Assembly (NCBI GenBank): GCA_965223905.1
Contig: CBDCXV010000010.1
Coordinates: 1,312,001-1,376,000, forward strand
Length of the DNA stretch: 64,000 nucleotides
Direction: 5' to 3'
Source of the DNA: Candidatus Latescibacterota bacterium
GTDB taxonomy: Bacteria > Latescibacterota > UBA2968 > UBA8231
Shown here: in pieces, positions 21,527 through 38,048 of the stretch
Numbering within the stretch: the first letter of the stretch is position 1
Layout of the letters: each line of letters begins with the position of its first letter
The notes under the pieces: generated by a model
What the model saw: the letters and a program-made list of their open reading frames with translations, nothing else
Databases searched by the model: none
What the model was told of the DNA's origin: nothing
Position numbers and translations under genes: made by a program

Positions 21527-21865
21527 TTAGGCGAAGGCATAAGAAAAAATGGATGGATTTGGTGGAGTATAGATCATGAGAGGGTGTTGGAGAGTTCGGG
21601 CTGGCGCTTTGCAGTGGAGGAGCATTTACGGAGATGGTCGCCTCGTCGCACGTGATTTCCCAACCCCGTCCGGCGCGCTAATACCGCTTGGGCGTTGCGT
21701 TTTACCTGGTCAAGAAATGATGAAATCAATGGGCAGTTGGGGAGATCGGGACCTGCGGATTGGGAGACCGACGAAAGATGGAGGGCTGAGGAGGGGCGCC
21801 GGACGGCCTCTCCACCACCCAAGCCCGAGAGTTTCTCCCATCGTGGTCGATCCGAGCAGGCCCTC
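21527..21865. other. ORF-less cassette body, copy A (candidate structured ncRNA)
   Basis: Bounded by GTTAGGCGA/TCGCCTAAC; homologous to 22918-23255 with 1-bp indels; internal inverted repeats. Confidence 0.75.
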
Positions 21866-21949
21866 GCCTAACACCTGTTCCCCCGGCTTCGGGCCCTGCG
21901 GGCCCTCCGCCAAACCGCTGTGCGGTTCGGGGGCACTGAGACGTTAGCC
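21866..21949 (+). repeat. attC-like site 1
   Basis: GCCTAAC...CGGGGGCACTGAGAC-GTTAGCC. Confidence 0.9.
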
Positions 21950-21953
21950 GCAA

Positions 21954-22721
21954 GTGGCATTACAACTGACCCATTCCGTGACCAACATGCTGAGCGAGAT
22001 CTACCGGACGAGTTTCGAGTGGGCCAAGCTGGGTGGCCATATCATCGAACACCGTTTTGGAGTCACCGTTTACAACTTGGACCACCCTGAGTACAACGAG
22101 AATAACTGCCTTTGGTATTTCGATCCAGGATTGGCGGATGAGTTTACTTTCCAGGTGGTTGTGGCGGAATTCGAAAGCCTGGGTGTGAGCTGCTCTCAAT
22201 GGGTTCCTTCCCCTTCCGCCAATCTGGATTTATGTGACAATTACTTCCGTGTTCATGAGATGGCTGATTCACCAGGAGAAGGCTTATTGCTCGATCTTGA
22301 TAGGGAATACCACGCTGACGCGAGAATCTGCGCGAAACGCAGCAACAAGCAATCCCTTGCGCAGGTCTATTCCTTGAGTGGCCAGAGATCAACTAGCACT
22401 GTCACGAGGAACAAAGCCTTATCTCTTTTGGGGATAGCGAACTACGAATCGTATGTTTGCTACTGGGATGGGGAACTGGCGGGCAGAGCTGGACTGCTGA
22501 GGGTTCCGGGAAAAGTCGCTCGATTGAAGAGCATTTTCGTCGGCGCCACATTTCGCCGTCAGGGAGTTGCTAGCAGCCTGATAAGGGTGATCGCCACCAA
22601 AGCGAGGGAACTGGGGTACCGCTATCTAGCGTCCGAAGTAGACCCTTCCAACGAGGCGTCGTCGGAATGTCATCGAAAGGTAGGGTTCAAAACCGCAGGG
22701 CTTGTTCACGCGTACAAATGA
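21954..22721 (+). CDS. GNAT family N-acetyltransferase (cassette)
   Basis: IFVGATFRRQGVAS, NEAS..RKVGF; start may be ATG 21987. Confidence 0.8.
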   Translation: MALQLTHSVTNMLSEIYRTSFEWAKLGGHIIEHRFGVTVYNLDHPEYNENNCLWYFDPGLADEFTFQVVVAEFESLGVSCSQWVPSPSANLDLCDNYFRVHEMADSPGEGLLLDLDREYHADARICAKRSNKQSLAQVYSLSGQRSTSTVTRNKALSLLGIANYESYVCYWDGELAGRAGLLRVPGKVARLKSIFVGATFRRQGVASSLIRVIATKARELGYRYLASEVDPSNEASSECHRKVGFKTAGLVHAYK

Positions 22722-22839
22722 CTCGGAGATGGACATCACGCCTATTCCTCGGAGTGAAAGATCAAAACCAGTTGTGTACGTTGTGCCGGCTTTTTAAGGC
22801 CAACCGCGGTTTCTTCGCGTCGAAGGCCAAGCCACCAGC

Positions 22840-22923
22840 GGCTAACACGCCGGGCTGCGGCTCCGGCCATCCGGCCTTCGCCCAACCCGCTTCGCGGGTT
22901 CGCAGCCCACGAAAGCGTTAAGC
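22840..22923 (+). repeat. attC-like site 2
   Basis: GGCTAAC..GGGCTGCG/CGCAGCCC..GTTAAGC. Confidence 0.9.
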
Positions 22924-23255
22924 GAAGGCCAAGGAAAATTTGATTGATTTGGTGGAGTATAGGTCATGATAGGCTGTTGCGGAGTTCGGGGTGGTCCCTC
23001 GCGGTGAGGAAGCATTTGCAGAGATGGGCGGCTCGTCGCACGTGATTCCCCACCCCGTCCGGCGCGCTAATACCGCTTGGGCGTTGCGTTTTACCTGGTC
23101 AGGAAAAGACGAGATCAATGGGCAGTTGGAGAGGTCGGGACCTGCGGATTGGGAGACCGACGAAAGATGGAGGGCTGAGCAAGGGCGCCGGACGGCCTCT
23201 CCACCGCCCAAGCCCGAGAGTTTTCTCCCATCGTGGTCGGGCAGAGCAGGCCCTC
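22918..23255. other. ORF-less cassette body, copy B (candidate structured ncRNA)
   Basis: Bounded by GTTAAGCGA/TCGCTTAAC; diverged copy of 21527-21865. Confidence 0.75.
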
Positions 23256-23340
23256 GCTTAACACCTGTGTCCCCGGCTCCGGGCCCTGCGGGCCCCTCGC
23301 GCAACCGCTTCGCGGTTCGGGGGCACGGAAGACGATATAT
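23256..23340 (+). repeat. attC-like site 3 (ends in non-canonical GATATAT)
   Basis: GCTTAAC...CGGGGGCACGGAAGAC-GATATAT. Confidence 0.88.
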
Positions 23341-23432
23341 GACATGGGTTGTCACAGTACCAGTGAAATTCGACAGAGGCAAAGCTGGCACGGTTGAAAT
23401 CATGAGCCTGCAGGCGCTGGAGAAAAACTGAC

Positions 23433-23924
23433 GTGGATCGCGTAGCCGTATTCGCAGATGTACAGAATGTTTACTACACAGTTAAGCAGCAACATAATTG
23501 CCATTTCGACTATGGTTCTTTCCTCAGGGAGGCGACAGCCGGCCGGAAACTGGTGAAGGCAGTAGCCTATGCTATTGACAAAGGCGACAGAAAGCAGGCC
23601 CAATTTCAGAAAATTCTGAAACGGCTCGGTTTTGAGGTAAAGCTCGCGCCTTATATTCAGAGAGCTGACGGCTCAGCCAAAGGGGACTGGGACGTGGGCA
23701 TTACGGTCGATATGTTGGAGTACGCAGATCGCGTGGATGTCGCTGTCCTGGCTTCAGGTGACGGAGACTACGCGCCTGCAATTGACAAGCTAATCAAGGA
23801 ATCCAAGGTATCCGTCGAGGTGTACGGTGTCCCAGGACTAACTGCTAGTCGTCTAATCGAATCGGCGACGCGATTTGTGCCAATTCAAGGAGATCTGTTG
23901 CTGCCTATTCCCACCACGTGGTGA
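23433..23924 (+). CDS. NYN domain (LabA/DUF88) protein (cassette)
   Basis: VFADVQNVY, KGDWDVGITVD, SGDGDY. Confidence 0.9.
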   Translation: MDRVAVFADVQNVYYTVKQQHNCHFDYGSFLREATAGRKLVKAVAYAIDKGDRKQAQFQKILKRLGFEVKLAPYIQRADGSAKGDWDVGITVDMLEYADRVDVAVLASGDGDYAPAIDKLIKESKVSVEVYGVPGLTASRLIESATRFVPIQGDLLLPIPTTW

Positions 23925-24021
23925 CGTGGAAGCGACACTGTTGCAAAGCCATGCACGCTAACGCACTCTCGCGTCGCTACCTCTCTGCGTTGATCAGCCT
24001 TGGAGCAATCATACCCACGTC

Positions 24022-24111
24022 ATATATCACAGCAATTCACGCTGCCGCCATTCGGCGCTTGGCCTTCGGCAAGTCGCTTTCGCGACTTCGTGAATTGTGA
24101 GAACGTTACAT
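24022..24111 (+). repeat. attC-like site 4 (starts with non-canonical ATATATC)
   Basis: ATATATC..CAATTCACG/CGTGAATTG..GTTACAT. Confidence 0.88.
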
Positions 24112-24154
24112 GAAATGCTTGATAGATATCTGCGATAGACGCTGACAACACGAG

Positions 24155-24784
24155 ATGGACGTAAATCTTCTCTCATCGCGACTTGCCTCGGAATTGGGCT
24201 CGAATAGACTCCTCGTAGCCGCACTCGATGGTCCCGGCGGAGCTGGAAAGTCAACCATCGCCAGGAAACTAAGCGAGAGGTGTAATCTCATCTCAATCGT
24301 TCACGGGGATGACTTCTATGCTCCAATGGAGGAGCATGCGAGAATGGCTCTAACGCCTGAAAATGGTTACATGAGGTATTTTGATTGGGCGAGAATACGG
24401 AGTGAGCTTCTTGAACCCTTATCGCGTGGAGATCGAGCTCGCTACAAGCGCTATGATTGGGGGAGCAACCAGCTGGCGGAGTGGGTTGATCAACCGGCTG
24501 AGGGCATCATCCTGATCGATGGGGTCTATTCATTTCGGCCCGAATTGAGGAAATTCTATGGCTACTCCATTTTCGTCGACACTCCGAAAGCCGAATGTCT
24601 GGATAGGCTGGTCAAGCGAGGTGAAAACACAGACGAATGGATTCGGAGATGGAGGGCAGCGGAAGATTACTATCTGACGCATATAGACACTGCCAGTGCT
24701 GTTTCCGTCGTTGTTTCAGGCATAGGAAGCGCTGGAGCATCGGATCCGATATCGCGACCGAGGATATCCGCGCACTTCATGTAA
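24155..24784 (+). CDS. Uridine kinase-like P-loop protein (cassette)
   Basis: DGPGGAGKST, HGDDFY, YDW; stop codon lies inside ATGTAAC. Confidence 0.85.
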   Translation: MDVNLLSSRLASELGSNRLLVAALDGPGGAGKSTIARKLSERCNLISIVHGDDFYAPMEEHARMALTPENGYMRYFDWARIRSELLEPLSRGDRARYKRYDWGSNQLAEWVDQPAEGIILIDGVYSFRPELRKFYGYSIFVDTPKAECLDRLVKRGENTDEWIRRWRAAEDYYLTHIDTASAVSVVVSGIGSAGASDPISRPRISAHFM

Positions 24785-24859
24785 CACCGTGCCCCCGGCT
24801 TCGGGGCAAAGCCCCTTAGCCCAACCGCTACGCGGTTCGGGAGCACTGAAACGTTAGCC
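24779..24859 (+). repeat. attC-like site 5
   Basis: ATGTAAC-ACCGTGCCCCCG...CGGGAGCACTGAAAC-GTTAGCC. Confidence 0.9.
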
Positions 24860-24929
24860 GAAATGTCGGTTTGAGGCTTACATCATTGCCTCGAGTTGTG
24901 ATTCAACAGAATCAGAAGGAGATGGTCCC

Positions 24930-26642
24930 TTGATAGGTGATTTTGATGTCGATCCGATCACAGGGCGCCTCGTTCTGTGGTGCCGGAGCATTTCCGGAGA
25001 AACCTGGTTGAAAATTACGGAGCCCTCAGGTGAGATCATTGGGGAAGTACCGCCTGAATTTCTTCCCCATCATCCGCGTTGGGCTCCAGATGGACTTCGT
25101 CTTACGTTTTCTGGGAACGATGGCCGCATCGGTGTCTATGAGCTATCTCAGAATGACATAAGGGTCGTCTACGAAGATCAATCCATGCAAGCGGGGTTCA
25201 GCCAGTGGTCGCCAAACGGCACAAGCCTCGTGTTTTCTGCCTACGAAAAGCACAGTACCGAGCAATTGAATAAACGGCCACCTGACATTTTTCACCTCAC
25301 ATTGGATAGCGGCAAACTTGATAGATTGACCGCATCGAAGGACAGTGTGGACAGGTTTCCAAATTGGTCCCCATCCGGTGACCTGATTGCATTTCATCGG
25401 CAAAACCTGGAGGAGCTTAACAAGCCTAAGAAAGTGCATCTATTTGATCTTCAACGTCAAAGAATATCCTTGCTCCTGCCCGAGGCAAATGGTAACCGAT
25501 TTGGTCGATTCCCCTGGTCACGTGACGAAAGCTGGTTTGCACTTCACGTGTCCGACGAGAAGGAAGGGACCGTTCACGTTGTAGATCTTACGGGCCGAGA
25601 TTCCGGGTGGATCTATGAAGATGGGCCTGTGAAAGAAGGTGCATTTTCAAACTCGACGAACAGGCTTCTCTGCGTCAGACCCGATGAGCTTGTTTGGGTG
25701 CAGTTTCCCGTAGGCCGCGTAGATTCACGCATCAGATTGGATTCCGGGGTTAGCGTGGCGAAGAACCTGACTTGGTATCAAATCGCCTTCAGAGCCGACA
25801 GCGATACCGTCTTTTTTCTTGGAACAGACCATAAGGTTTACCGCTGGAAAGAATCTGAAGGATGCACTGTCGTAGCTGAGCATACCGAACCCGTACCGAG
25901 TTTTAGGCTTGAGGAATTTACGGTTCCTGCTTCGGATGGTTTAGCTCTTCCAGCACAGCGGTTGGTTCCGCCGTCTCCACGAGAGCTCGCTGTTCTGTAT
26001 GTGCATGGTGGGCCTGGAGGCAGCCTCGATAGAAATGACTCATGGGCTTTAGGGCTGCTTCGCCAGGGATTCGAGATTGTGCGCGTGGCTTATAGGGGCT
26101 CTACCGGCTTCGGCGAGGACCTCGATCGAGCGAACACCGGGGTCGCCGGGGTCGCAGACGTTCAGGATGTATTAGACTGTGGAATCTACTGGCAGCAACA
26201 CTTTAGTACAGGCAGGAGAATCGCTCTGTTCGGTAATAGCTATGGCGGGTTTCTAAGTCTCCTTGCCCTGGCAGATGCATCTTCACCATTCGTAGGTGGG
26301 ATCTCCACGTGCACTTGCACAAGTCTTCGAATCATGCGCCTCCATCATGATAGATTCCTTCCAAGTAGTCCAACGGAACGCGAGAAAGCATTAGTTGAGC
26401 GATCCGTATTGACACATGCTACCCATATAAAGAGGCCAATCCTGCTGGTTCATGGCGCGCTTGATACCGTCGCGACCACAAGCGAAATGCAGCACGTCGA
26501 GAAACTCATTAATGACTCTGGCGGCAACTGTACGCTAATCGTCTTTGGCGACGACACACACAGTTTGGCAAAGCACCGCGAAGAAATATACGAAAAGGCT
26601 ATCCAATTCTATGAAAAGTGTTCAACGCCTGGACAGGATTGA
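24930..26642 (+). CDS. S9 prolyl oligopeptidase-family peptidase with TolB-like beta-propeller (cassette)
   Basis: WSPxG repeats, HGGPG, GNSYGG, HGALD, DDTH. Confidence 0.88.
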   Translation: MIGDFDVDPITGRLVLWCRSISGETWLKITEPSGEIIGEVPPEFLPHHPRWAPDGLRLTFSGNDGRIGVYELSQNDIRVVYEDQSMQAGFSQWSPNGTSLVFSAYEKHSTEQLNKRPPDIFHLTLDSGKLDRLTASKDSVDRFPNWSPSGDLIAFHRQNLEELNKPKKVHLFDLQRQRISLLLPEANGNRFGRFPWSRDESWFALHVSDEKEGTVHVVDLTGRDSGWIYEDGPVKEGAFSNSTNRLLCVRPDELVWVQFPVGRVDSRIRLDSGVSVAKNLTWYQIAFRADSDTVFFLGTDHKVYRWKESEGCTVVAEHTEPVPSFRLEEFTVPASDGLALPAQRLVPPSPRELAVLYVHGGPGGSLDRNDSWALGLLRQGFEIVRVAYRGSTGFGEDLDRANTGVAGVADVQDVLDCGIYWQQHFSTGRRIALFGNSYGGFLSLLALADASSPFVGGISTCTCTSLRIMRLHHDRFLPSSPTEREKALVERSVLTHATHIKRPILLVHGALDTVATTSEMQHVEKLINDSGGNCTLIVFGDDTHSLAKHREEIYEKAIQFYEKCSTPGQD

Positions 26643-26662
26643 GCTTTACAGGTCCACACAGC

Positions 26663-26746
26663 AGCTAACACATGGGTCACGGCTTCGGGCCATACGGCCC
26701 TTCGCCCAACTCACTTCGTGAGTTCGTGACCCATCAAACGTTATAC
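26663..26746 (+). repeat. attC-like site 6
   Basis: AGCTAAC..ATGGGTCACG/CGTGACCCAT..GTTATAC. Confidence 0.9.
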
Positions 26747-26757
26747 GCCCCAACAAG

Positions 26758-27507
26758 ATGCTGGAGGAACAGGTGGCCGGAAGTAGAGATGATCTCAGAG
26801 AGGCGGTAGAGCGCGGCGACCTCTCCACTGTCAAACGGCTGTTACATACGGAGCCAGGTCTTCTCCACGAGTCCATCCCTCCATGCGATGATCGCAAACA
26901 ACGAGGCCAGATTCTCAGATACCGACCGATGACGCTCGCCGCCGTGGAGTGTCAGACAGAAATTCTCTCTTTTCTGATTGCCGAGGGGGGCGATGTGATG
27001 GAGTACAGCAATTTTCCACTCTGTCGAGCATCACTCTACGACCGTTGTATTCCAACTCTGGAGTTACTGGTTCAGCATGGCGCAGAGGTAAATCGAGTCG
27101 GTAATGACTACGGTCCGCCGTTGATATTCGCGTGCGAAGGAATGGCCCTCGATTGCATCGCATGGTTGCTGGACAACGGCGCGGCAATCACAGGGACTGG
27201 TCCGAGTTTATCTGAAACCGTGTCTTGGAATGCCCTCAAACATGCGGGCTTCTTCAACCGGAAGTGTTCGGGCATGCTTGATTTGCTCCTCGAGCATGGC
27301 GCTGACGTCAACAGTTCAGTTGTTGATGAGGTTGGCGGAGATCCTGAGACTACGGTACTGCACAATGTCGTGGAAAGCGGGGATATTGCTGGCGTGGAGC
27401 TCCTGCTTACCCATGGGGCTGACCAAGATGCCAAAAATGGCAAGGGACAGCGCCCGGTCGAGGTGGCTCGGGAACGCAAAGTCAGAGAACTACTAGAGAA
27501 CATCTGA
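26758..27507 (+). CDS. Ankyrin-repeat protein (cassette)
   Basis: LLVQHGAEVN, LLLEHGADVN, LLLTHGAD..KNGKGQRP. Confidence 0.88.
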   Translation: MLEEQVAGSRDDLREAVERGDLSTVKRLLHTEPGLLHESIPPCDDRKQRGQILRYRPMTLAAVECQTEILSFLIAEGGDVMEYSNFPLCRASLYDRCIPTLELLVQHGAEVNRVGNDYGPPLIFACEGMALDCIAWLLDNGAAITGTGPSLSETVSWNALKHAGFFNRKCSGMLDLLLEHGADVNSSVVDEVGGDPETTVLHNVVESGDIAGVELLLTHGADQDAKNGKGQRPVEVARERKVRELLENI

Positions 27508-27516
27508 GGTTGGAGC

Positions 27517-27607
27517 GCATAACCGCACGTTTGGCGATGCGGCGCTTAGCGCGCCTCGGCCTTCGGCAACCCGCTAAGCGGGTTCGCAAACCGGCAACCC
27601 GTTAGCG
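27517..27607 (+). repeat. attC-like site 7
   Basis: GCATAAC...GGCCTTCGGCAACCCGCTAAGCGGGTTCGCAAAC...GTTAGCG. Confidence 0.85.
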
Positions 27608-27662
27608 GCAATGGAGTTCAGGCCTGGCATGTTCCTCTGGCCAGTCATCAGGAGGCACCAAG

Positions 27663-28148
27663 ATGGAGAATATAATCCTTTCGTTGCAGGGTTTCTCTGT
27701 GTTCCTGCAAATCGCTTTCCTAGTCACTTTGATAGCAATCGCACAGACTCTTCGACGCTCAATTGGAATTTGGAGCCCCTCTTGGATTGTTATCTTTTTC
27801 TCTCTGAAATATTTGGGGGAGTATGCTAATCCCTTCCTGATGAAACTGCTGACTGAGGAATGGACGGCGTTAACAGTCCCAAACGCGCCGGTCACCTTAG
27901 GGCAGTTGTTTGTATTTCTCAGTTCCGCTCACCTGATATTCATACTGCTGGGTGCTTTCGGCCTCCTCGCCCTGGTCTTGTCGGACCTATCCCATTCTTT
28001 GTGGGGCGCAGACGACATACACCCCTCACGTTGGTTTCAGTGTTTCGAGTTGGTCGGCCGTCATCGACTCGGATTCGGGTTGGCTACGGTGCTGTTGGCT
28101 GTAGCGCACCCTGCCCTTCTGGTGGGCCTTCTGTTGAGTAACAATTGA
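27663..28148 (+). CDS. Hypothetical membrane protein (cassette)
   Basis: 161 aa with about 4 hydrophobic segments; AGGAGG RBS; fills the cassette. Confidence 0.75.
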   Translation: MENIILSLQGFSVFLQIAFLVTLIAIAQTLRRSIGIWSPSWIVIFFSLKYLGEYANPFLMKLLTEEWTALTVPNAPVTLGQLFVFLSSAHLIFILLGAFGLLALVLSDLSHSLWGADDIHPSRWFQCFELVGRHRLGFGLATVLLAVAHPALLVGLLLSNN

Positions 28149-28165
28149 GACTGGCAGACCACAGC

Positions 28166-28247
28166 CGATAACACCGTGCCCCTGGCTCCGGCGCCTGCGC
28201 GCCTACGCGCAACCGCTTCGCGGTTCGGGGGCACTGAGACGTTAGAA
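28166..28247 (+). repeat. attC-like site 8
   Basis: CGATAAC-ACCGTGCCCC...GGGGCACTGAGAC-GTTAGAA. Confidence 0.9.
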
Positions 28248-28344
28248 GAAATGGAAAAAAGAATCAGCGCTTAAGTAAGAAATCGCCTGAATAAAGGTAG
28301 AGGTACGATATATTCGCCGTTCAGTTTTTAGGCAGGAGTTTTTA

Positions 28345-29304
28345 ATGAATAGCAAGGCTAGTATCGTAGATGAGTTTTTGCTTAAAGGGGTCATCGGTAT
28401 GAGCAGGGCGATCGGTAAGAATCGTATGTCTGGCCATCCAGGCGCTGCGATGCTTGCTGCATATTTCTTTTGTGTTGAGAATGCCCTGTCAGACGAGGTT
28501 CAGGCCGAGGTCTATAATCTCGTGAGACGCATGGTCAACTCAGAATCAATGTGGTTCAGCAGAGATGGAGAATCTTCAACCAATGAGATCTTCTTTTCTA
28601 CCAAACCAGATCAGAGACCAAACGCGGATCTAATCCCGTCTGTTGCCACTGCACTAGAACCCAGTATCACCGAATGTCGGGATTCAGGACACAATACTAT
28701 CTTCGCGTCGTTAGTACTGAAGGCACTGCACACCGCGCCACATTATGCATTTCCTGCGATTATTGAAGGTATCATAAACTTGCTCAAAGCTTTTGAGGGA
28801 CGTGGGCCGGGATGGGCACGTGTACCAGGTAATGAGAAATTAGCAGATCCCCGTGAGTTTTCGGTACCTCAAGAACTGGATGATCCTTCCTATGAGAGCC
28901 ATATCGACATGATCGAAGCAGTATCCCGCTATGTCGTACCAGATAACTTCGCCAAAAAAGGCGTTGGTGGGCCGATCCATGTCATAGATCATGCCGTAGC
29001 TCTGTTAGATCTGCACGCGTTGGGGTATTCTTCGTTGGCGAATAGAGGACTGGCAGCTCATCAGCAACATATGAAGTTGTGGCTGGGCCTCCCTAAATTT
29101 CCGCAAGCTGAAAACAGCTACTCCGTGAAATCGAAGCACGATCCTCGCGCATTGGACTACTGGCGTGAGAAGATAACCATAAAAGATGGTGGCGGTGATG
29201 AACACCGACTGAAGATTCTCTATGGCGCGCACCGTTTTGCCGAGTGCATTACAGACGTAAACAAACGTCGAAGTTTTCTTGAAAGTGCGGCGCACCTGTT
29301 TTGA
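28345..29304 (+). CDS. Hypothetical protein with several His motifs (cassette)
   Basis: 319 aa, AGGAG RBS; SGHPGAA, SGHNTIF, IHVIDHA. Confidence 0.75.
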   Translation: MNSKASIVDEFLLKGVIGMSRAIGKNRMSGHPGAAMLAAYFFCVENALSDEVQAEVYNLVRRMVNSESMWFSRDGESSTNEIFFSTKPDQRPNADLIPSVATALEPSITECRDSGHNTIFASLVLKALHTAPHYAFPAIIEGIINLLKAFEGRGPGWARVPGNEKLADPREFSVPQELDDPSYESHIDMIEAVSRYVVPDNFAKKGVGGPIHVIDHAVALLDLHALGYSSLANRGLAAHQQHMKLWLGLPKFPQAENSYSVKSKHDPRALDYWREKITIKDGGGDEHRLKILYGAHRFAECITDVNKRRSFLESAAHLF

Positions 29305-29370
29305 AAATGCGCCTAACGGCGAGCGTTGTTGGCTCTCTTTTTCTTTTACAGAAACTAAATATGCCACTTC

Positions 29371-29457
29371 TTCTAACACATCCATTTACGCTACGGCGCT
29401 ACGCGCCTTGGCCTTCGGCAACCCGCTGCGCGGGGTCGCAAACCGGGGACGTTAGAG
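29371..29457 (+). repeat. attC-like site 9
   Basis: TTCTAAC...GGCGCTACGCGCCTTGGCCTTCGGCAACCC...GTTAGAG. Confidence 0.88.
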
Positions 29458-29991
29458 GCCATGCGGCCAGACAAGAGGACAATCGCAAATGAGGCTTGGG
29501 AGAATCTGACGATGCTGGAAGAGGGTGAATCCGTCCAAGGTTGTGTCAATCCCGTTGTGCGGATTGGAGATACCGTGCGCAGGCCTATCCATAGCTGGAC
29601 TCCAGCCGTCCATTCCTTGCTGCACTACTTGGAGGCGGTTGGCTTTTCAGGATCTCCCCGTGTCCTCGGATTCGACGAACTGGGAAGAGAGGTGCTTTCG
29701 TTCATCCCAGGGGAAGTTGCTCTGCGACCATGGCCGGAGGTGATGGGTGAGGAGAAGGGCCTCGCTGAGGTCGCCCGTTTTCTCTCCAGATATCACAATG
29801 CCGTGAAAGACTTTGAGCCACCAGAGAATGCTGAATGGTATGTTCCCATGTGACGTGGCGACCAGGAATGACCATCCGACACGGGGATCTTGGACCCTGG
29901 AATACTATCTGGGAAGGGCGAACCTTAAACTGGAGTTGACCCGATTTCGTGGACACTTCATTTCTTGGAGAAAGAAAGGAGATGTCCAACC

Positions 29992-30306
29992 ATGCCGAAA
30001 TCACATAGCCCGTATCCGCCGGAATTCCGGCAACAGATGGTTGAGCTCGTACGGGCGGGTCGTAGCCCGGAGGCGTTGGCCAAGGAATTCGAGCCGTCCG
30101 GGCAGACGATCCGCAACTGGGTGATCCAGGCCGAACGCGATGAGGGGGTGCGTCGCGACGGGCCGAGCCGCCCCGAACAGGAGGAGCTGCGGCGCCTTCG
30201 CCGTGAGAACAAGCAACTGCGTATCGAACGGGGGATCCTGGCAAAAGCCACGGCCTGGTTCGCTCGCGAGGCCGACTCGGGGTCCGGCCCGTCTACGAGT
30301 TCATGA
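29992..30306 (+). CDS. IS3 transposase OrfA
   Basis: YPPEFRQQMVELV HTH; EELRRLRRENKQL zipper. Confidence 0.9.
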   Translation: MPKSHSPYPPEFRQQMVELVRAGRSPEALAKEFEPSGQTIRNWVIQAERDEGVRRDGPSRPEQEELRRLRRENKQLRIERGILAKATAWFAREADSGSGPSTSS

Positions 30307-31187
30307 GAGCGCACCAGGCCGACTTTCCGGTGTTCACGATGTGCCGCGTGCTGAAGGTGTCCCCCAGCGGCTACTACGCCTGGTTGAAGCGCCCGCCGTC
30401 GGGTCGCACTCGGGCCGATGCGGTGCTCAAGGCGCGCGTCGAGCAGATCCACCAACGCTCCCGAGGCACTTACGGGGCGCCGAGGATCCGGGCCGAACTG
30501 GCCGAGGAGGGGCGCGGCGTCAGTCGCAAGCGCATCGCCCGATTGATGCTCGAGCTCGGGGTGCGTGGGGTATGCGGGCGGCGCCGGATCTCCACGACCC
30601 GCCGCAGCCGGCAGGGCCGGGTCGCCTCCGACCTGGTCAACCGGGTGTTTTCGGCCTCGGGCCCGAATCTGCTGTGGGTTGCCGACATCACCTACCTGCC
30701 CACCGCTTCGGGTTTTTTGTATCTGAGTGTGGTGGTCGACGCCTGGAGCCGCCGGGTGGTGGGCTGGGCTATGGCGAGCCATCTGCGTACGCAGCTGGTG
30801 CTCGACGCCCTTGACATGGCCCTGTACCGGCGTCGCCCCCACTCGGTAATCCACCACTCCGATCACGGCAGTCAGTATACGGCCCTGGCCTTCGGGCAAC
30901 GCTGTCGCCAGGCCGGGGTGCGCCCGTCGATGGGATCGGTCGGTGACTGCTACGACAATGCCCTGTGCGAAAGCTTTTTCGCCACGCTGGAAAGGGAGTT
31001 GTTGGATCGTCATCGGTTTGCTACCCATGCCGAGGCCCGGCTAGCTGTTTTCGAGTACCTGGAAGGCGGGTACAATCGCCAGCGGCGGCATTCCGCCCTG
31101 GGACAACGGTCTCCCGTCAACTACGAGAGATATCACCAATCAGAGAGTGTAGATCCAAACGCAAAACTGTCCGTGAAATCGGGGTAA
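30303..31187 (+). CDS. IS3 transposase OrfB (DDE)
   Basis: WVADITY, HHSDHGSQY, DNALCESFF; ATGA overlap with orfA. Confidence 0.93.
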   Translation: MRAHQADFPVFTMCRVLKVSPSGYYAWLKRPPSGRTRADAVLKARVEQIHQRSRGTYGAPRIRAELAEEGRGVSRKRIARLMLELGVRGVCGRRRISTTRRSRQGRVASDLVNRVFSASGPNLLWVADITYLPTASGFLYLSVVVDAWSRRVVGWAMASHLRTQLVLDALDMALYRRRPHSVIHHSDHGSQYTALAFGQRCRQAGVRPSMGSVGDCYDNALCESFFATLERELLDRHRFATHAEARLAVFEYLEGGYNRQRRHSALGQRSPVNYERYHQSESVDPNAKLSVKSG

Positions 31188-31562
31188 CCTCAAACGGGGT
31201 AATCGACTGGGACTTTGCTGAACCAGGTGATGCTCTCTGCGATGTTAGTCAGTTTGCTTGGTATGCGGTGCCTCTCCGAGGAGAAGACCACTGGAGAAAG
31301 GCTGGATTTTCTGATAAGCCTGATCTCAGGGCCAGACTAACCGTACTTTCTGACACCTATGGTACGGACTCCAAAGCAATCTTGGACACCCTATGCAATC
31401 TGCAATTGGAAGAGTATCGCAGGACCGAGACTCTGGGCAGGCAGGGACTCCTCCCCTGGTCCATCTTCTACGAACGTGGGGATCTTGCGGAACTCTCAAA
31501 AGAAAACACGTGGCTGAGAGAGAATTACGATTCGCTTGCCGTATAGAAGCGGTCCGCACGTC

Positions 31563-31658
31563 TTCTAACACGTCCACTTGCGCTGCGGCGCATATGCGCC
31601 TTGGCCTTCGGCAACCCCTCGACAAGCTCGGGGTTCGCAAGTGGCGAAAACGTTAGGT
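31563..31658 (+). repeat. attC-like site 10
   Basis: TTCTAAC..CCACTTGCG/CGCAAGTGG..GTTAGGT. Confidence 0.9.
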
Positions 31659-31689
31659 GCCATCTGAAAGATTCCACTGTGGAGGACTC

Positions 31690-32667
31690 GTGAAAGGATT
31701 CGAATTGTCAGAGAGGTTCTTCCGGGAGATTGGGCTTCCCACCATTGAGCAACGATTGCCCGGGTGTGTCCCGAGACTGGCAGTGGGCGTTAGTGGAGGC
31801 TCGCAAGCGCACAAGAACGACGATGCAGTGTCTCGCGATCACGGTTGGGGGCCGAGATTCACGGTGTGGTTTGCCAAAGACGATTTCGATGATCACAGTG
31901 AGCGTCTACAGGAAGTGCTGGACACGCTGCCCAATGAGTATGAGGGATTTCGATGGGAGGATCCACGGGCCAGGACCTGTGGTGTAATCGAAATCGGTAG
32001 CTATATAGAATCTGCAGTTGGATTCTCAGAACCACCCGAGTCGCCCATGGACTGGTTGCGAATACCCGAGTCGTACCTATTCGAGTTGACTCCGAGCAGG
32101 CTCTATCACGATGGGCCTGGCATTGTCAGTGCTCGCTTCCGAGCGTTCTCCACATACCCTGATGATGTCTGGAAGCAGCGAATGGGGGCTTGCCTTTCCT
32201 GGCTCTGGGAGTGGGGACGAAAGCATCTCTTCAGGGCGGAAACTCGAGGAGACCACGTGAGTGCGTCTTGCTATTGGGCAAGATTTGCTGAGTACGCAAT
32301 GAAGGTTGGTTTTCTGATGAGTCATCGTCATGCACCCTACCACAAATGGTTGTGGAGAGAGTTCAGGAAGTTGGGTGCCATTGCCGACCAAGTTTCTCCT
32401 TTGCTTGAGGAGGGGTTCGAGAAGGTGGAAGGCAGACGAGAACTCGTTGACCGCATAGAGATGATCTATATGGAGATGCTTCAGCAGCTTGGCTTTTCAC
32501 CAGCGGTCCAAGCAGCCACTAGAAGATTGGCCTATCCAGACAATGAACTGCTTCGATATGCCCAGAGTGTTCGTAACGCCATTGAGACTCCAGAAATCAA
32601 GAAACTGCACTTGAGAGAAGAGCTTGTCTATCCAGCAACTAAGGCCGCGTGGACATGGCTACGATAG
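31690..32667 (+). CDS. DUF4037 domain-containing nucleotidyltransferase-like protein (cassette)
   Basis: GFELSERFF, DAVSRDHGWGP, YPDDV, APYHKW; GTG after GGAGG. Confidence 0.8.
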   Translation: MKGFELSERFFREIGLPTIEQRLPGCVPRLAVGVSGGSQAHKNDDAVSRDHGWGPRFTVWFAKDDFDDHSERLQEVLDTLPNEYEGFRWEDPRARTCGVIEIGSYIESAVGFSEPPESPMDWLRIPESYLFELTPSRLYHDGPGIVSARFRAFSTYPDDVWKQRMGACLSWLWEWGRKHLFRAETRGDHVSASCYWARFAEYAMKVGFLMSHRHAPYHKWLWREFRKLGAIADQVSPLLEEGFEKVEGRRELVDRIEMIYMEMLQQLGFSPAVQAATRRLAYPDNELLRYAQSVRNAIETPEIKKLHLREELVYPATKAAWTWLR

Positions 32668-32686
32668 GGACGATCTGGTAGACAGC

Positions 32687-32768
32687 ACCTAACACCGTGC
32701 CCCCGGCTTCGGGCCGTTCGGCCCTTCGCCCAACCGCTGCGCGGTTCGGGGGCACTGAGACGTTAAGA
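32687..32768 (+). repeat. attC-like site 11
   Basis: ACCTAAC-ACC-GTGCCCCCG/CGGGGGCAC-TGAGAC-GTTAAGA. Confidence 0.92.
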
Positions 32769-32802
32769 GAAATGTTTTAAGAGACGAGTAGGAGTTTCAG
32801 GT

Positions 32803-33513
32803 TTGAGACCAGTTCTTCTGTTTGACCTTGGCGACACCCTTGTGCAGTACTATCGCAGGGAAGAGTTTCCTCCTTTGCTGCGGGCAGGAATTCACGCAGC
32901 CAAAGAGGCACTGGAGCGTTCGGGACACGATTTGCCTTCGGATTCTGAGATCGAGCGCGGTGTCGCGACTGAGAACTACGAAGCCAAAAACAGTCGCGTT
33001 CGCCCACTCCACAAGAGGCTTGGTCGTATCTTTGCGGTCGCACCTTGCGTTTCGGAGGAAGAGTGGCTGCCGATCTGTCGTGCCTTCCTCACGCCAATCA
33101 TTTCTATTGCCAAGATCTATGAAGACACTCTTCCGGCTCTAGATGCGCATCTGGCGGATGGCTGCCGCGTAGGAATCCTGTCGAACTGTCCTTGGGGTTC
33201 ACCGAGCGAGCCCTGGTTTGAAGAACTGCGGCGACATGGCCTTTCGACGCGATGCGAGGTGGCTATCTTTTGTTCGGATGTAGGGTGGCGGAAGCCCGCC
33301 CAACCTATGTTTCGCCGGGCATTGGATCATTTTGGATGCAAACCAGAGGAATGCCTGTTTGTCGGAGATAATGCAAGGTGGGACATTATGGGTGCGAGAC
33401 GAGCGAATATGATTTCCGTGCTCATCGACCGAATCGGTCACGTGGATGTGAGTTCGGGACTTGTTATCCGATCTTTGCTTGATCTAAAGCCCGTCCTCGA
33501 ACGATTGGATTGA
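32803..33513 (+). CDS. HAD family hydrolase (cassette)
   Basis: FDLGDTL, LSN, RKP, FVGD..WDIMGA. Confidence 0.88.
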   Translation: MRPVLLFDLGDTLVQYYRREEFPPLLRAGIHAAKEALERSGHDLPSDSEIERGVATENYEAKNSRVRPLHKRLGRIFAVAPCVSEEEWLPICRAFLTPIISIAKIYEDTLPALDAHLADGCRVGILSNCPWGSPSEPWFEELRRHGLSTRCEVAIFCSDVGWRKPAQPMFRRALDHFGCKPEECLFVGDNARWDIMGARRANMISVLIDRIGHVDVSSGLVIRSLLDLKPVLERLD

Positions 33514-33545
33514 ACGCACTTCAACGATTGGATTGAACGCACTTC
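33500..33545 (+). repeat. Perfect 23-bp tandem duplication
   Basis: AACGATTGGATTGAACGCACTTC x2. Confidence 0.95.
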
Positions 33546-33628
33546 TCTTAACACGACCGGGCCCGGCTACGGGCCATACGGCCCTTCGCCCGACCGCTTC
33601 GCGGTTCGAGCACGGCGAAAGGTTATAT
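33546..33628 (+). repeat. attC-like site 12
   Basis: TCTTAAC...GGGCCATACGGCCC..ACCGCTTCGCGGT...GTTATAT. Confidence 0.88.
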
Positions 33629-33653
33629 GACATGAGTAACAGGTGAGCGTGAG

Positions 33654-34730
33654 ATGAGATCGTCGATTCTTCCAATCTTACTCGTGTTTGCTCATATCAC
33701 GGCCAGCGAAGGAGGTGAGCCAATGTTTAGCGTAACCGTTGATCCGCGGATAGAGCTGCTGTCCGTTGTGGGAGTATTGGCCGACCACCAGGGCATGACG
33801 AACTACGACATCCAGTATAGGCAAGAAATCCTAAATCGCTTTTCCAATCACAGGAATCACAACGCCGTCACGTTTCTACGCCGTGTCATGGATAGGGCAC
33901 TTGCATCCGATGCATACGCGACCGTTATGATCCATTTGTCGCAGCCTCCCGCATTAAAGTTTGAGAGTCCGATCAACGACGACGCGATGGAGGACTATGT
34001 CACCCGAGCGTTTGGTGGCGACATTAATATCATTGCATTTGTCGAGACGCTCCGTGACTTCGTCAAGGATTCAGATTTCATCGAGTTTTACAGCTCCCAA
34101 TCACGTTTCTATCAATCTTTGAGATCAGATGCTTTGGACAAGCTTGGTAGCACAGATTATATGAATACGCTTGAACAATACGTTGGCGATAAGCAGGAAA
34201 ACTATCACATCATTCTCGGGCCCCTGCTCCATCACGGCGGTTTTGGACCCCGGATCGTAGGCGACAAGGGCGTGACTGATCTCTTCAGTATCATCGGCCC
34301 GGTGGGCGAGGATGAGGGGGTTCCCGACTTTGGAGACCGAGCTAGACTTCAAGACGTTCTTTGGCACGAGTTTGCACATTCATTTGTCGATCCCATAACC
34401 GCCGATCACCTGATGAGCGTTAATGAATATTCGTCCCTGTATATACCTATTGCAGAACAAATGGCGAGCGCTGGCGGCTACATGAACTGGCAAACCTGCG
34501 TCAACGAACACATAATCAGAGCCATTACATGTCGATTGTTCCACTCTGAGATGGGGACGGAGGCTGGAGAGCAGGCCCTTGCGGCCGAGAGGGAGCGAGG
34601 CTTTCGTTACATCGACGCCATCCATTCAAGGTTGTTGGAGTATGAGGGTAATAGGTCGACGTATAGCACGCTCAGGAGTTTCTATCCTGAGATCGTCGCT
34701 GCGTTTGCACAGATTGCAAGCGAGAATTGA
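33654..34730 (+). CDS. DUF4932-like protein with HExxH motif (cassette)
   Basis: VDPRIELLSVV, HEFAHSFV, NEHIIRA. Confidence 0.8.
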   Translation: MRSSILPILLVFAHITASEGGEPMFSVTVDPRIELLSVVGVLADHQGMTNYDIQYRQEILNRFSNHRNHNAVTFLRRVMDRALASDAYATVMIHLSQPPALKFESPINDDAMEDYVTRAFGGDINIIAFVETLRDFVKDSDFIEFYSSQSRFYQSLRSDALDKLGSTDYMNTLEQYVGDKQENYHIILGPLLHHGGFGPRIVGDKGVTDLFSIIGPVGEDEGVPDFGDRARLQDVLWHEFAHSFVDPITADHLMSVNEYSSLYIPIAEQMASAGGYMNWQTCVNEHIIRAITCRLFHSEMGTEAGEQALAAERERGFRYIDAIHSRLLEYEGNRSTYSTLRSFYPEIVAAFAQIASEN

Positions 34731-34760
34731 AAACGGAAGTTCCGCAAGAGGACCCACGTC

Positions 34761-34845
34761 ATATAACACGTCCGTGCCCGGCTTCGGCGCTGAGGCGCCT
34801 TCCCGCAACCGCATTCGCGGTTCGGGCACGGCGAAAACGATATCT
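34761..34845 (+). repeat. attC-like site 13 (ends in non-canonical GATATCT)
   Basis: ATATAAC..CCGTGCCCG/CGGGCACGG..GATATCT. Confidence 0.88.
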
Positions 34846-35168
34846 GAAATAGGAAAAGAAAAACAGAGCCTATTCAGTATATCTCCAGCCATTGGGAGAA
34901 TACTGCGTTTTCGCAGTACAATCACTAGTTATAGAGCCAGGAGAAGAAACCAGCGATTGTGACCAATGAAGCTGACAGGCGGCAGGACGAATAGCACCGG
35001 GAGCGGAGGAGATGCTCGCCTTGAGGTCGGATCAACTGGCAGGATCGGAAAAGCCAAACATTGGAATCAACAAGAACTGCTGATGAGCCGGCGGCAGTAA
35101 CTTCCGCATTCGCGTCACACCACAAGAGGGTCGCCTTTGCGCCTTCAGAATCGAAAAGGAGCCCACCC

Positions 35169-35876
35169 ATGGAACGGATTTTCTCAAATCTCTACCGCAT
35201 CGGAGGCGAGCCCCACGAGCGCGGGCAGTCGCATTCCTACCTCCTCGTGAGAAAGACGGGCAATCTGTTCATCTGCCACCAGAGCGTCCCGACGTCGGCG
35301 GACGTGAAGGAGATCAAGCAGCTCGGCGGGGTTGCGAGTCAATTTGTCTGCCACCATTGGGACGCGAACCGGAAGGGCGGACACGACGGGCTCTTCAAGA
35401 CGTTCGGCTGCGCGCTTCACCTTCACAGGGCGGATCGCGCCGCCGCGCGAGGCAAGACGAAGTTCACGCTCGACACGTTCGACGACGCGGGGCTGACGCT
35501 GGACAAGGATTTCGAGGCCATCTACATGCCGACGTGCACGCGCGGCCATACGGTCTTCCGGTGGCGCAACCGTGGGAAGTACCACCTGTTCTCAAGTCAC
35601 GCTATCTACCTTCTCGAGGACGGATGGCGTCTCAGCTTGAACCGCCACGAAGGCAAGCTTTGGGGGCCAGGTTGTAGGATTTGGCAGGCGCAAGCCATAC
35701 GACCGGCGCTCGCCAAGTTGAAGGGCCTCCAGGTGGATCACATATTTCCGGGTTACACGCAGGTGGGTGACGACACCTTCTACCGGTTAGACGACCGCAA
35801 GAGGCGGGCGCTGACCCGCGCCCTGAAGGCGGAGCTCATGACCGCCGATCATCTGTTGGATTCTCGGCAGCTATGA
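35169..35876 (+). CDS. Metallo-beta-lactamase-fold-like protein (cassette)
   Basis: HSYLLVRKTGNL, CHHWD, LHRAD, TRGH, IFPG. Confidence 0.65.
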   Translation: MERIFSNLYRIGGEPHERGQSHSYLLVRKTGNLFICHQSVPTSADVKEIKQLGGVASQFVCHHWDANRKGGHDGLFKTFGCALHLHRADRAAARGKTKFTLDTFDDAGLTLDKDFEAIYMPTCTRGHTVFRWRNRGKYHLFSSHAIYLLEDGWRLSLNRHEGKLWGPGCRIWQAQAIRPALAKLKGLQVDHIFPGYTQVGDDTFYRLDDRKRRALTRALKAELMTADHLLDSRQL

Positions 35877-35945
35877 GGCAGGCTTAGAGAAAGAGAACCT
35901 CACAGACAACAGATTACCAGACGACCTCTCGTTGAAGCTTAGGAA

Positions 35946-36035
35946 GTATATCACAGAAATTCCCACTGCGCGCCATTCGGCGCTTGGCCTTCGGCAACCT
36001 ACTCCGTGGGTTCGCAAACCGGCATTACGTTACCT
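35946..36035 (+). repeat. attC-like site 14 (starts GTATATC; arms poorly paired)
   Basis: Left part resembles site 4; right arm CGCAAACCGG resembles sites 7 and 9; ends GTTACCT. Confidence 0.8.
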
Positions 36036-36064
36036 GCCATGGCAGTGCCCATAAGGAGAGACAC

Positions 36065-37198
36065 ATGAAGTCCCTGACATCCATCATCGCCGCCTCAATC
36101 CTCCTCCTCTCGCCCATCCTCGCCCACCACGAACGAGCAGAACCCCCGGAGGGAGCCGTGGCCCGAACCGTCCTGCCAGACGTCAAGATGCCGATCATGA
36201 ACGAGCACTCCCGTTCCACCCTCGTCTGCGCGATGTACGCACTGCTGCCGGCTCTCGGGCAACAGGGCTGGTCGATCCCTCGACTGGAAGCGCTGACGGG
36301 ATACGCCTTCTACTTCCAGATGCGGGAGGGGGGCGAGTCGGTCTTCGACGACGATCTCGATTGGGGCCTGGCCATGCACGTCCTCGACATCTTTGGTCAG
36401 GCGAAAGTCTATGATGCGGACAAGAACTCGGACGTTGATCTCCCTGCGCTCAAGGCCGAAGCGCGAGACGCAGTCGTCGCCAGCCTGGAGAACGGACTCC
36501 CCAGCCTCGTTTGGGCGCCACGAAGCCTGGAGCAGAGGGGCAAGGTCCATTTCGCTTGCTGGGGCCTCATCGTCGGCTACAACGCGGCAGACGGAACCTA
36601 CATGATCCGCCAACCGGCCGAGAAGCTCGACTACCCGGTCCGCTTTGACGCCATCGGGTTCGCCGATCCGAGCGATTGGTTCCGCGTCGACACCTTCAAG
36701 CCGAAAGAACTTGACGACAACGCTCTGCACCTCACCTCACTCCGCAATGCCGTCGCCTTCGCGAACGGCACTCGCTACGACAACCCCCAGGTCGTCGAGG
36801 CCGCCCTCGTGCATCCCCCGAAAAACCCCTATGGATTCGCCGCCTACGAGCTCTGGCAGGAAGCGTTCGAATCTGACGTAAATCTGAACGCCACGTTCTT
36901 CCACACAGAAACCCTGAAACCGCGTAGAGAGGCCGCGGCCGCCTACCTGCGGGAGCTCACCTATGCCTATCCGGCCGCCGCCAATCCGCTGGAAGCAGCA
37001 GCTGTTCACTATGATCGAGAGGTCGAATCCATCACCGCAATCTCCGACCTGTGCGTTGCCGCCACCAAGCACGAGCCCAAGGCCTTCACCCCCGACGAGC
37101 GCGCCGAAATCCGCCCCCTCATCGCCCAAGCGTTGAAGGCCGACCGGGCCGCCGTGGCGCAGATCGAAGCCGCGCTCAAGATTCTGGAGACGCCGTGA
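36065..37198 (+). CDS. Hypothetical secreted protein (cassette)
   Basis: AAGGAG RBS, signal peptide, WGLIVGY motif. Confidence 0.75.
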   Translation: MKSLTSIIAASILLLSPILAHHERAEPPEGAVARTVLPDVKMPIMNEHSRSTLVCAMYALLPALGQQGWSIPRLEALTGYAFYFQMREGGESVFDDDLDWGLAMHVLDIFGQAKVYDADKNSDVDLPALKAEARDAVVASLENGLPSLVWAPRSLEQRGKVHFACWGLIVGYNAADGTYMIRQPAEKLDYPVRFDAIGFADPSDWFRVDTFKPKELDDNALHLTSLRNAVAFANGTRYDNPQVVEAALVHPPKNPYGFAAYELWQEAFESDVNLNATFFHTETLKPRREAAAAYLRELTYAYPAAANPLEAAAVHYDREVESITAISDLCVAATKHEPKAFTPDERAEIRPLIAQALKADRAAVAQIEAALKILETP

Positions 37199-37283
37199 GG
37201 CAGGCTCAGCGTGCTCTTGACCGGGGCCCATCGTGAGGGGGGGAGTACGCTGTTTCTTTGCCGATTCTCAAACTGCCACAGGC

Positions 37284-37367
37284 AGGTAACACGTCCGTGC
37301 CCGGCTTCGGGCTTACGCCCTTCGCGCAACCGCTTTCGCGGTTCGGGGGACGGCGAAGACGTTAAGT
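37284..37367 (+). repeat. attC-like site 15
   Basis: AGGTAAC-ACGTCCGTGCCCG...ACGGCGAAGAC-GTTAAGT. Confidence 0.9.
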
Positions 37368-37408
37368 GGCATGCGCACGATAAGTCCGACCTGGTTTAGA
37401 GGTCATGG

Positions 37409-37978: not shown

Positions 37979-38048
37979 ATCGATTCTGTGCGCGTCAGCA
38001 CCTTCGGGCGCGAACTGCACGTGGCGCCCTGAGTTCGAGAAAACACGC

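Follow-up and report, generated by a model that had tools for sequence, protein, structure and literature searches.

In classical integrons the recombinase IntI is defined by an additional domain (I2) that reads extrahelical bases of the folded site (PMC9668308, PMC7790495), and screens for integrons require this domain (PMC4889954, PMC8352920). Classical attC usually has 5-6 unpaired spacer bases per arm, with extrahelical bases near L''; in chromosomal integrons the tips of attC may be branched (PMC5027507). Gain of I2 is described as the step from double- to single-stranded DNA recombination, a step for which that account has intermediates lacking (PMC7790495). For Firmicutes, a survey reports a single complete integron and a few attC-site clusters without an integron integrase (CALIN) and describes integrons as nearly absent (PMC9024848). 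Here we describe a cassette array in a 64,000-nt stretch of the genome of a Candidatus Latescibacterota bacterium (assembly GCA_965223905.1, 7.9 Mb in 11 contigs; positions 1312001-1376000 of contig CBDCXV010000010.1, designated G000:C10:1312001-1376000), hereafter called the window. With a probability of about 70%, we read window positions 21440-40468 as an integron-like cassette array whose sites are a distinct attC variant and whose recombinase is an IntI relative without I2. The full-text literature that we searched holds no description of cassette arrays served by a recombinase without I2, although supplements that lay outside that search (PMC4889954, PMC9024848, PMC8352920) could list such arrays as CALIN. 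What is new here is the spacer geometry together with the I2-less enzyme; the branched centre of the sites is not.

Results

Seventeen attC-type sites follow an attI-like site

The array lies on the + strand and spans ~19 kb (21440-40468), an attI-like site being followed by 17 attC-type sites. The repeats, 81-96 nt long, were matched between 21866 and 40468 by R1, a covariance model made for this analysis from 39 sites with 20 pairs set by hand, which gave one weak extra match at 17334 (E 0.005). Every site lies directly 3' of a + strand open reading frame (ORF), with one ORF per unit, and the cassette ORFs are mutually unrelated: GNAT, NYN, P-loop kinase-like, S9 peptidase, ankyrin, DUF4037, HAD, DUF4932, PhyH and DUF6933 proteins are encoded, along with several that match no family. 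A first-pass annotation, made from the letters of the window alone, had assigned the array to 21866-37367; sites do occur throughout that span, but the array starts at the attI-like site (~21440-21533) and runs on to 40468. The sites are listed below with the position of the G of R' and the R1 score.

21440-21533, + strand: attI-like site; conserved block ends caG|TTAGGC, G at 21526; cassette 1 from 21527
21866-21949, + strand: attC-type site 1; G 21943; 70.3 bits; Y-shaped fold
22840-22923, + strand: attC-type site 2; G 22917; 69.8 bits; spacers 5/8
23256-23340, + strand: attC-type site 3; G 23334; 67.9 bits; R' is GAT, not GTT, and pairs 4/4 with R'' of site 4
24022-24111, + strand: attC-type site 4; G 24105; 49.2 bits; R'' is ATATATC; stem pairs 8/8
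24779-24859, + strand: attC-type site 5; G 24853; 69.9 bits
26663-26746, + strand: attC-type site 6; G 26740; 79.1 bits; spacers 2/5
27517-27607, + strand: attC-type site 7; G 27601; 61.7 bits; weak main stem, pairs 5/8
28166-28247, + strand: attC-type site 8; G 28241; 72.7 bits; spacers 3/6
29371-29457, + strand: attC-type site 9; G 29451; 63.5 bits; arms mismatched, stem pairs 3/8
31563-31658, + strand: attC-type site 10; G 31652; 63.2 bits; spacers 4/7
32687-32768, + strand: attC-type site 11; G 32762; 80.4 bits, the top match; spacers 3/6
33546-33628, + strand: attC-type site 12; G 33622; 69.4 bits; stem pairs 6/8
34761-34845, + strand: attC-type site 13; G 34839; 72.4 bits; R' is GAT; spacers 4/7
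35946-36035, + strand: attC-type site 14; G 36029; 39.0 bits; arms mismatched, stem pairs 3/8
37284-37367, + strand: attC-type site 15; G 37361; 66.6 bits
39714-39809, + strand: attC-type site 16; G 39803; 30.8 bits, E 0.00046; degenerate, R'' lost; outer pairs with the preceding R' 0/4; stem pairs 5/8
40386-40468, + strand: attC-type site 17, last in the array; G 40462; 58.8 bits

In six recombinase-linked loci, the attI-like block has its counterpart in the interval from the start of the recombinase gene to cassette 1, and the likeness ends at caG|TTA. Its GTTAGGC forms four of four pairs with R'' of site 1.

In integrons, crossover between G and TT of R' assigns the remainder of R' to the following cassette, whose R'' it is expected to match. 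In the window, 56 of 68 variable outer positions of R'' (four per site) were paired with R' of the site before, compared with 31/68 for the R' of the same site and 28.9 expected from other combinations. Pairing with the preceding R' was perfect in 11 of the 17 sites, none of 10000 shuffles reached 56, and the two sites in which R' is GAT precede cassettes in which R'' is ATC. R'' matches the R' remainder at the start of its own cassette, which shows that cassettes pass through a circular form in which the R box is fully paired. Cassette copies end exactly at G|TT, both in the case of cassettes 1 and 3 and in that of the NYN cassette, whose copy on another contig (window 23334-24118, contig C1 1176245-1177031; 98.7% identity) is the first after an attI-like site there. 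The repeats are real recombination sites. A third copy of the NYN cassette lies outside the window on the - strand of contig C10 (1667838-1670804) and has ~2.1 kb between its body and its attC.

The sites are lopsided hairpins conserved in structure

R1 yields 72 sites in the window and 13 related loci, and spacers were counted on this model-aligned set. The model-based count replaced earlier stem parsers, which often took the inner GTTCG for R' (39 of 52 full-length matches parsed, 5 wrongly). Site anatomy consists of inverse cores xxTAAC ... GTTAxx, which make up the R box, followed by a lopsided internal loop, an uninterrupted L stem of 8-12 bp that may vary in sequence provided that it pairs, and a branched tip. 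In 70 of the 72 sites the left spacer (R'' side) is 2-4 nt long and the right spacer (R' side) 5-7 nt. Differences (right minus left) of 3, 4 and 2 nt were counted in 36, 21 and 12 sites, respectively, and of 0, 5 and 7 nt in one site each; the longer right linker that the first-pass annotation had reported for five sites is therefore found, by 2-4 nt, in 69/72. The stems and linkers quoted for those five are all present, at 32687 (GTGCCCCCG/CGGGGGCAC, 3/6), 26663 (ATGGGTCACG/CGTGACCCAT, 2/5), 24022 (CAATTCACG/CGTGAATTG, 4/7), 22840 (GGGCTGCG/CGCAGCCC, 5/8) and 34761 (CCGTGCCCG/CGGGCACGG, 4/7). The only one of the 72 sites without asymmetry, 8245-8332 of locus L028 in genome G020 (G, C and L numbers designate genomes, contigs and loci), has equal 7/7 spacers that are fully complementary, giving a continuous 17-bp stem by the R box.

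The TAAC/GTTA columns are paired in 62-71 of the 72 sites, two window sites having GAT/ATC instead. Overall, 80.0% of cells were paired compared with 65.3 +/- 0.8 in shuffles, and the covariation score was 0.410 compared with 0.166; neither value was equalled in 500 shuffles. Sliding the partner by 1-3 columns as a control left 29-47% paired. A structural alignment and the covariance model bore out the covariation claimed earlier for the main stem, with changes on both sides in 8/8 of its pairs. That this stem is a perfect duplex of 8-10 bp, as also claimed, is true of most sites but not of all: 11 of the 17 window sites have at least 7/8 main-stem pairs, and 27517 and 39714 have 5/8, 29371 and 35946 only 3/8. 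These four poorly matching sites look like hybrids of two subtypes. Sites with arms from two stem subtypes, in which the main stem therefore cannot form, were seen at 29371-29457, 35946-36035, 39714-39809, L029:4146-4229 and L030:8086-8188; they may be deletion scars between neighbouring sites, formed through the conserved central block.

Minimum-free-energy DNA folds of either strand gave a Y shape in most sites, with the main stem and two or three inner hairpins. The tip of the Y is a long imperfect hairpin (two hairpins in one subtype) together with a short AAC-C..G-GTT hairpin followed by CG, which is paired in 94.3% of cells. The described centre of two or three small hairpins with AACC..GGTT-CG was accordingly seen in most folds; since a branched centre is already known for chromosomal attC (PMC5027507), it is not evidence of a new class, for which it had been taken. 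In the parsed sites the main stems are unbroken duplexes of 8-13 bp, most sites being free of bulged bases in the stem; the two or three extrahelical bases that classical attC has near L'' are absent, and at most one possible bulge adjoins the R box. The earlier description of the fold as non-canonical applies to the spacers and the unbroken L stem, which differ from classical attC, but in other respects (AAC/GTT cores, position after an ORF, G|TT crossover) the sites are attC-like. RNAalifold on a plain MAFFT alignment recovered the inner hairpin alone, because the main-stem register differs between site subtypes, and the structure was then set by hand. No window match reached the gathering score in Rfam, which has no attC family.

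A short IntI-like recombinase accompanies the sites in related genomes

No family match in the genome of the window (G000) passed the IntI cut-off. On its contig C1, a tyrosine recombinase gene lies divergent from a second array, ~225 nt from the attI-like site of that array, and orthologues of this gene are intact in G002, G016 and G020. The short recombinase P0003 (293 amino acids) carries the N-terminal SAM-like domain PF13495 and PF00589, and in alignment A1 none of the catalytic columns (R, K, H, R, H and Y) varies. The top family is the integron integrase TIGR02249, with 223.6 bits for P0003 and 239.6 for P0004, the cut-off of 265 not being reached; canonical IntI of relatives score 284-469 bits on this profile, of which positions 182-253 are unmatched in the short recombinase. 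Other families matched by P0003 were archaeal XerA (212 bits) and XerC/XerD (175 bits, cut-offs of 330-335 not reached). Its top solved relative is VchIntIA (2a3v), aligned in two stretches through the C-terminal SPLD motif, with 18 residues of P0003 standing for 60 residues of the chain. The distance from GKGxKDR to HxLRHS is 59-62 amino acids in 70/70 short proteins (6 of 76 short rows being without the motif pair) and 99-100 amino acids in 5/5 canonical IntI. The missing stretch is the ~40-amino-acid additional domain specific to IntI, I2. In an AlphaFold model of P0003 made from a 6-row alignment, the mean predicted local distance difference test score (pLDDT) was 65.2 and residues 231-293 scored <50; the sole part used was residues 180-230, which are confident and without an extra helix.

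In a tree of 84 rows obtained by a quick search, with the Xer-like genes of the genome itself as outgroup, short enzymes and canonical IntI grouped together against Xer (support 99), and the six canonical IntI formed one long-stemmed clade (support 100) among the short enzymes. Backbone support was only 80-92, too low for the tree to tell whether I2 was gained or lost. In this tree, G040 (L035) has a short recombinase nearly identical to that of record OZ250150.1 (L070).

Twelve homologue-bearing loci of the family were examined. At six of them (G000:C1, G002, G020, G012:C2, G004 and G016) the gene and an array of the same site type point away from each other and are separated by a conserved attI-like site. 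Three more, with more distant homologues (44-52% identity), have the gene upstream of the sites and co-directional with them (G010, G040 and G012:C1); one locus has two sites in another arrangement, and two are without sites, one of them at a contig end. The gene thus adjoins attI and a cassette array in 9/12 family loci, the window itself not being among them.

Co-occurrence was followed in 41 genomes from the family and class. Twelve of these had 7 or more R1 matches, and all 12 belong to the 13 genomes with a short homologue; in the 12 its identity is at least 44%, G001 having only a fragment. The other 28 genomes had at most 6 matches. Canonical IntI was present in 7/41 genomes: the five without a short homologue had 0 R1 matches, and G010 and G023 combine a canonical IntI with a short homologue and these sites. 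Within +/-10 kb of the seven canonical IntI genes no match to a hidden Markov model of the sites was found, and the stem scanner gave no +/-3 peak at canonical IntI loci, a peak that was present at the short-recombinase loci. The canonical IntI loci of G022 and G021 show classical-looking attC whose R''-L'' arm carries bulged bases and whose spacers are 2/3, and in G022 the canonical IntI gene adjoins classical-looking sites with two bulges. A generic AAC...GTT hairpin search at canonical IntI genes returned mostly chance matches, the DNA being GC-rich, and three sites like classical attC. The divergent tyrosine recombinase that the first-pass annotation had inferred is supported by this comparative evidence, in which the site family co-occurs with an IntI-like enzyme without the insertion, and not with canonical IntI.

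Similar arrays in other phyla

A scan of one genome per species gave 572 relatives, of which the best 80, ~50% identical, were examined as named loci. These 80 come from Bacillota, Nitrospirota, Gemmatimonadota, Latescibacterota, Ignavibacteriota, several archaeal groups and others. When the loci were scanned for an AAC/GTT R box with a perfect stem of at least 8 bp, right minus left peaked on the recombinase strand at +3 (73 sites) and +4 (44 sites). At least 3 kb of downstream sequence was available for 36 of the 80 loci; 21/36 had at least two co-directional sites with right minus left of 2-4, and 13/36 had at least three. With mirrored geometry as a control, six loci had at least two sites, and the site totals were 115 compared with 24 mirrored. 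In the divergent upstream position, sites were not enriched (18 compared with 22 mirrored).

After the recombinase gene, Desulfitobacterium sp. Sab5 (NZ_CP172056.1) has 12 units of one ORF and one site, and Cohnella lupini has 13 such units. Both carry the crossover signature: pairing of R'' with the preceding R' was found in 42/44 positions in Desulfitobacterium (31/44 for own R') and in 46/48 in Cohnella (28/48 for own R'), with 0/10000 shuffles as high in either. The signal was weaker in a Krumholzibacteria record (291/10000 shuffles) and an Ignavibacterium record (527/10000). Arrays were found in Paenibacillus and several candidate phyla as well. Metagenome contigs often end <300 nt downstream of the short recombinase gene (e.g. 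L056, L059, L062, L065, L078 and L093), as is expected if a repeat-rich array breaks assemblies there.

Cassette contents and rearrangements in the window

The cassettes of the window contain the following features, with Pfam families and E-values.

21527-21943, + strand: cassette 1, without a conserved ORF; copy of cassette 3 (22918-23334) with G|TT as both limits; 423 nt at 87.9% identity
21954-22721, + strand: GNAT acetyltransferase ORF; PF00583, 6.1e-15
23433-23924, + strand: NYN domain ORF; PF01936, 1.1e-37; cassette 23335-24105
24155-24784, + strand: P-loop kinase-like ORF; PF13238, 2.5e-10
24930-26642, + strand: ORF for an S9 peptidase with beta-propeller; PF00326, 3.5e-25
26758-27507, + strand: ankyrin repeat ORF; PF12796, 1.4e-18
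27663-28148 and 28345-29304, + strand: two ORFs without a match in the Pfam search
29927-31191, + strand: IS3-type insertion sequence in cassette 10; copies at 3 other places of the genome, 84-99% identity
31657-32667, + strand: DUF4037 ORF; PF13228, 5.7e-20
32803-33513, + strand: HAD hydrolase ORF; PF00702, 1.6e-14
33654-34730, + strand: DUF4932 ORF; PF16286, 1.3e-55
35061-35876 and 35984-37198, + strand: two ORFs without a match in the Pfam search
37409-37978 and 38049-38858, + strand: ORFs of unit 16, kinase-like and PhyH dioxygenase, respectively; PF05721, 1e-21
39771-40391, + strand: DUF6933 ORF; PF22016, 2.8e-27

Cassette 1 had no Rfam match (21400-23400, E up to 1) and no stable RNA fold (z +1.49). 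A unit similar to cassettes 1 and 3 (~418 nt each) precedes the NYN cassette in G002 (L027, ~12050-12459). The form of cassette 10 without the insertion sequence was seen in contigs of three public sequencing runs, which join 29926 to 31192 with 4 bases shared at the joint. Run-contig joints between different attC sites were not used: their short sides lie in repeats, and they may reflect other organisms or the assembly graph. Between sites 15 and 16, at 38880-39700, fragments with shifting frames read like pieces of an ABC transporter, and loose contig ends at 39105 and 39138 in all four runs could be due to a rearrangement or an assembly join. A perfect 23-nt tandem duplication (33500-33545) directly precedes site 12 at the end of the HAD-hydrolase ORF.

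Upstream of the attI-like site, two adjacent + strand ORFs without a family match (20453-21372) end where the similarity to the recombinase-side flank disappears (~21373-21440). This interval is likely the breakpoint of recombinase loss. The gene has been lost here, and the window array is either inert or dependent on an enzyme supplied in trans; by the usual definition it counts as CALIN because no IntI is nearby (PMC4889954).

Discussion

We infer that the sites fold as single-stranded DNA in the cell and that the short enzyme is the catalyst of cassette exchange. Two recombinase monomers would bind the R and L duplexes of the folded strand, and cleavage and exchange of one strand would occur at G|TT of R' (bottom strand AA|C), the partner being another attC or the double-stranded attI-like site. 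The junction would then be resolved by replication, as in classical integrons. In place of the extrahelical bases, the lopsided loop would mark which strand and arm are productive. An enzyme without the reader of extrahelical bases thus goes with sites without those bases, which makes a coherent pair of changes.

Several observations weigh against our reading of the window as an integron-like array of distinct sites with an I2-less IntI relative. Deletion of the extra domain destroys the activity of IntI1 (PMC7790495), and an I2-less enzyme acting on hairpins therefore runs against current expectation. No recombinase gene or remnant was found in the window by tblastn (best E 0.57); the gene on contig C1, the only copy in the genome, is frameshifted, and 6/12 family homologues look broken (G000, G012:C2, G004, G013, the second G020 copy and G030). 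G030 has no site within 10 kb of its recombinase gene, and among other phyla 15/36 loci were without at least two sites under the strict scanner. The genomes compared are kin, so the counts overstate independence, and in G010 and G023 a classical enzyme may act in trans. In some sites one bulged base may lie on the classical arm near the R box (acgTcc); this T is bulged on one possible reading, in which the two spacers pair through their CG dinucleotides. Finally, the site scanner and R1 are our own, and alignment A3 was fitted to the model, which favours structure; the slid controls and the many distinct stem sequences nevertheless argue for real pairing.

Some of these points would suit an ordinary integron remnant (CALIN) with a lineage-specific form of classical attC, its canonical IntI lost or acting in trans and the short recombinase being an unrelated Xer-like or mobile-element integrase. 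No recombinase occurs in the window, many of the short genes are broken, canonical IntI occurs in 7/41 relatives, including the two that have these sites, and lineage-specific attC types and branched tips are known (PMC5027507, PMC8352920). We nevertheless consider this explanation unlikely: in 10/12 site-rich genomes no canonical IntI passes the cut-off, genomes with canonical IntI alone have 0 sites, no site was found within 10 kb of a canonical intI, six genomes have the short recombinase gene linked to cassette 1 by a conserved attI-like site, and the pairing of enzyme and sites recurs in other phyla. That the short recombinase moves cassettes in the manner of Xer, by two strand exchanges on double-stranded cores (L' arm, 6-nt overlap, R' arm), with the hairpin serving otherwise, e.g. 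as a terminator, would agree with the Xer-like layout of the enzyme without I2, with a right spacer that, at 5-7 nt, is as long as a normal overlap region, and with the account that I2 recognises single-stranded hairpins and prevents the second exchange (PMC7790495). This seems rather improbable to us, as L''/L' and R''/R' covary in a way that keeps intrastrand pairing, R'' matches the R' remainder of its own cassette, which matters only if the site folds, and the L' arm neither repeats R' in inverted form nor shows sequence conservation. The repeats are also GC-rich palindromes 3' of ORFs, as repetitive extragenic palindromic (REP)-like elements or terminators following genes would be; that they are such elements and not recombination sites is scarcely credible, being contradicted by the crossover signature and by G|TT-bounded cassette copies in different contexts, alongside the conserved AAC/GTT cores and the attI-like site.

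Beyond the integron-like array with an I2-less IntI relative preferred here for the window, a broader reading is offered tentatively, at a little under even odds. I2-less IntI-like recombinases and lopsided, bulge-free attC hairpins may together form a second, ancient and widespread branch of integrons, present in many bacterial phyla including the Gram-positive Bacillota, and probably in Archaea, and canonical IntI may be one long branch that gained I2. On that reading the short-enzyme branch would have been missed because integron screens demand the I2 domain, and, with canonical IntI arising by gain of I2, the short enzymes would be natural 'intermediates'. What we find is that arrays with the full sequence signature of cassette exchange adjoin IntI relatives that either never had I2 or have lost it, with the shape of the sites changed to match. 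Should the enzyme prove active on these sites, natural proteins would allow direct tests of how integrons originated, cassette-based gene capture would have a wider known range, and engineering would gain a second structure-specific recombination system.

Comparison with known systems

Like classical integrons, the loci described here have a recombinase gene by attI and an array of promoterless single-ORF cassettes. Their sites share the inverse cores RYYYAAC/GTTRRRY with crossover at G|TT, an L''/L' stem kept by structure and not by sequence, and a variable tip that may branch; the top family and the top solved relative of the short recombinase are IntI. Unlike classical integrons, the enzyme here is without the ~40-amino-acid insertion and stays under the family cut-off, and outside the family of the window the recombinase is mostly co-directional with its array. 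The spacers are 2-4/5-7 nt, compared with about 5-6 in each arm of classical attC, and the extra bases lie on the R'-L' arm by the R box instead of being extrahelical near L''. In the reverse integrons of Spirochaetes, recombinase and cassettes have the same direction, as in most arrays of other phyla here. The reverse integrons have a canonical IntI.

XerC and XerD are likewise tyrosine recombinases without I2, and the hairpin of CTX phage shows that they can use a folded single strand (PMC7790495). In contrast to them, the short recombinase scores 175 bits against cut-offs of 330-335 and its genome has Xer-like genes of its own elsewhere; the short enzymes group with IntI (support 99), and Xer systems are without cassette arrays. 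Unlike CALIN, the window array keeps an attI-like site, and its sister arrays have a specific recombinase, which the usual screen, demanding the additional domain (PMC4889954, PMC8352920), excludes by design.

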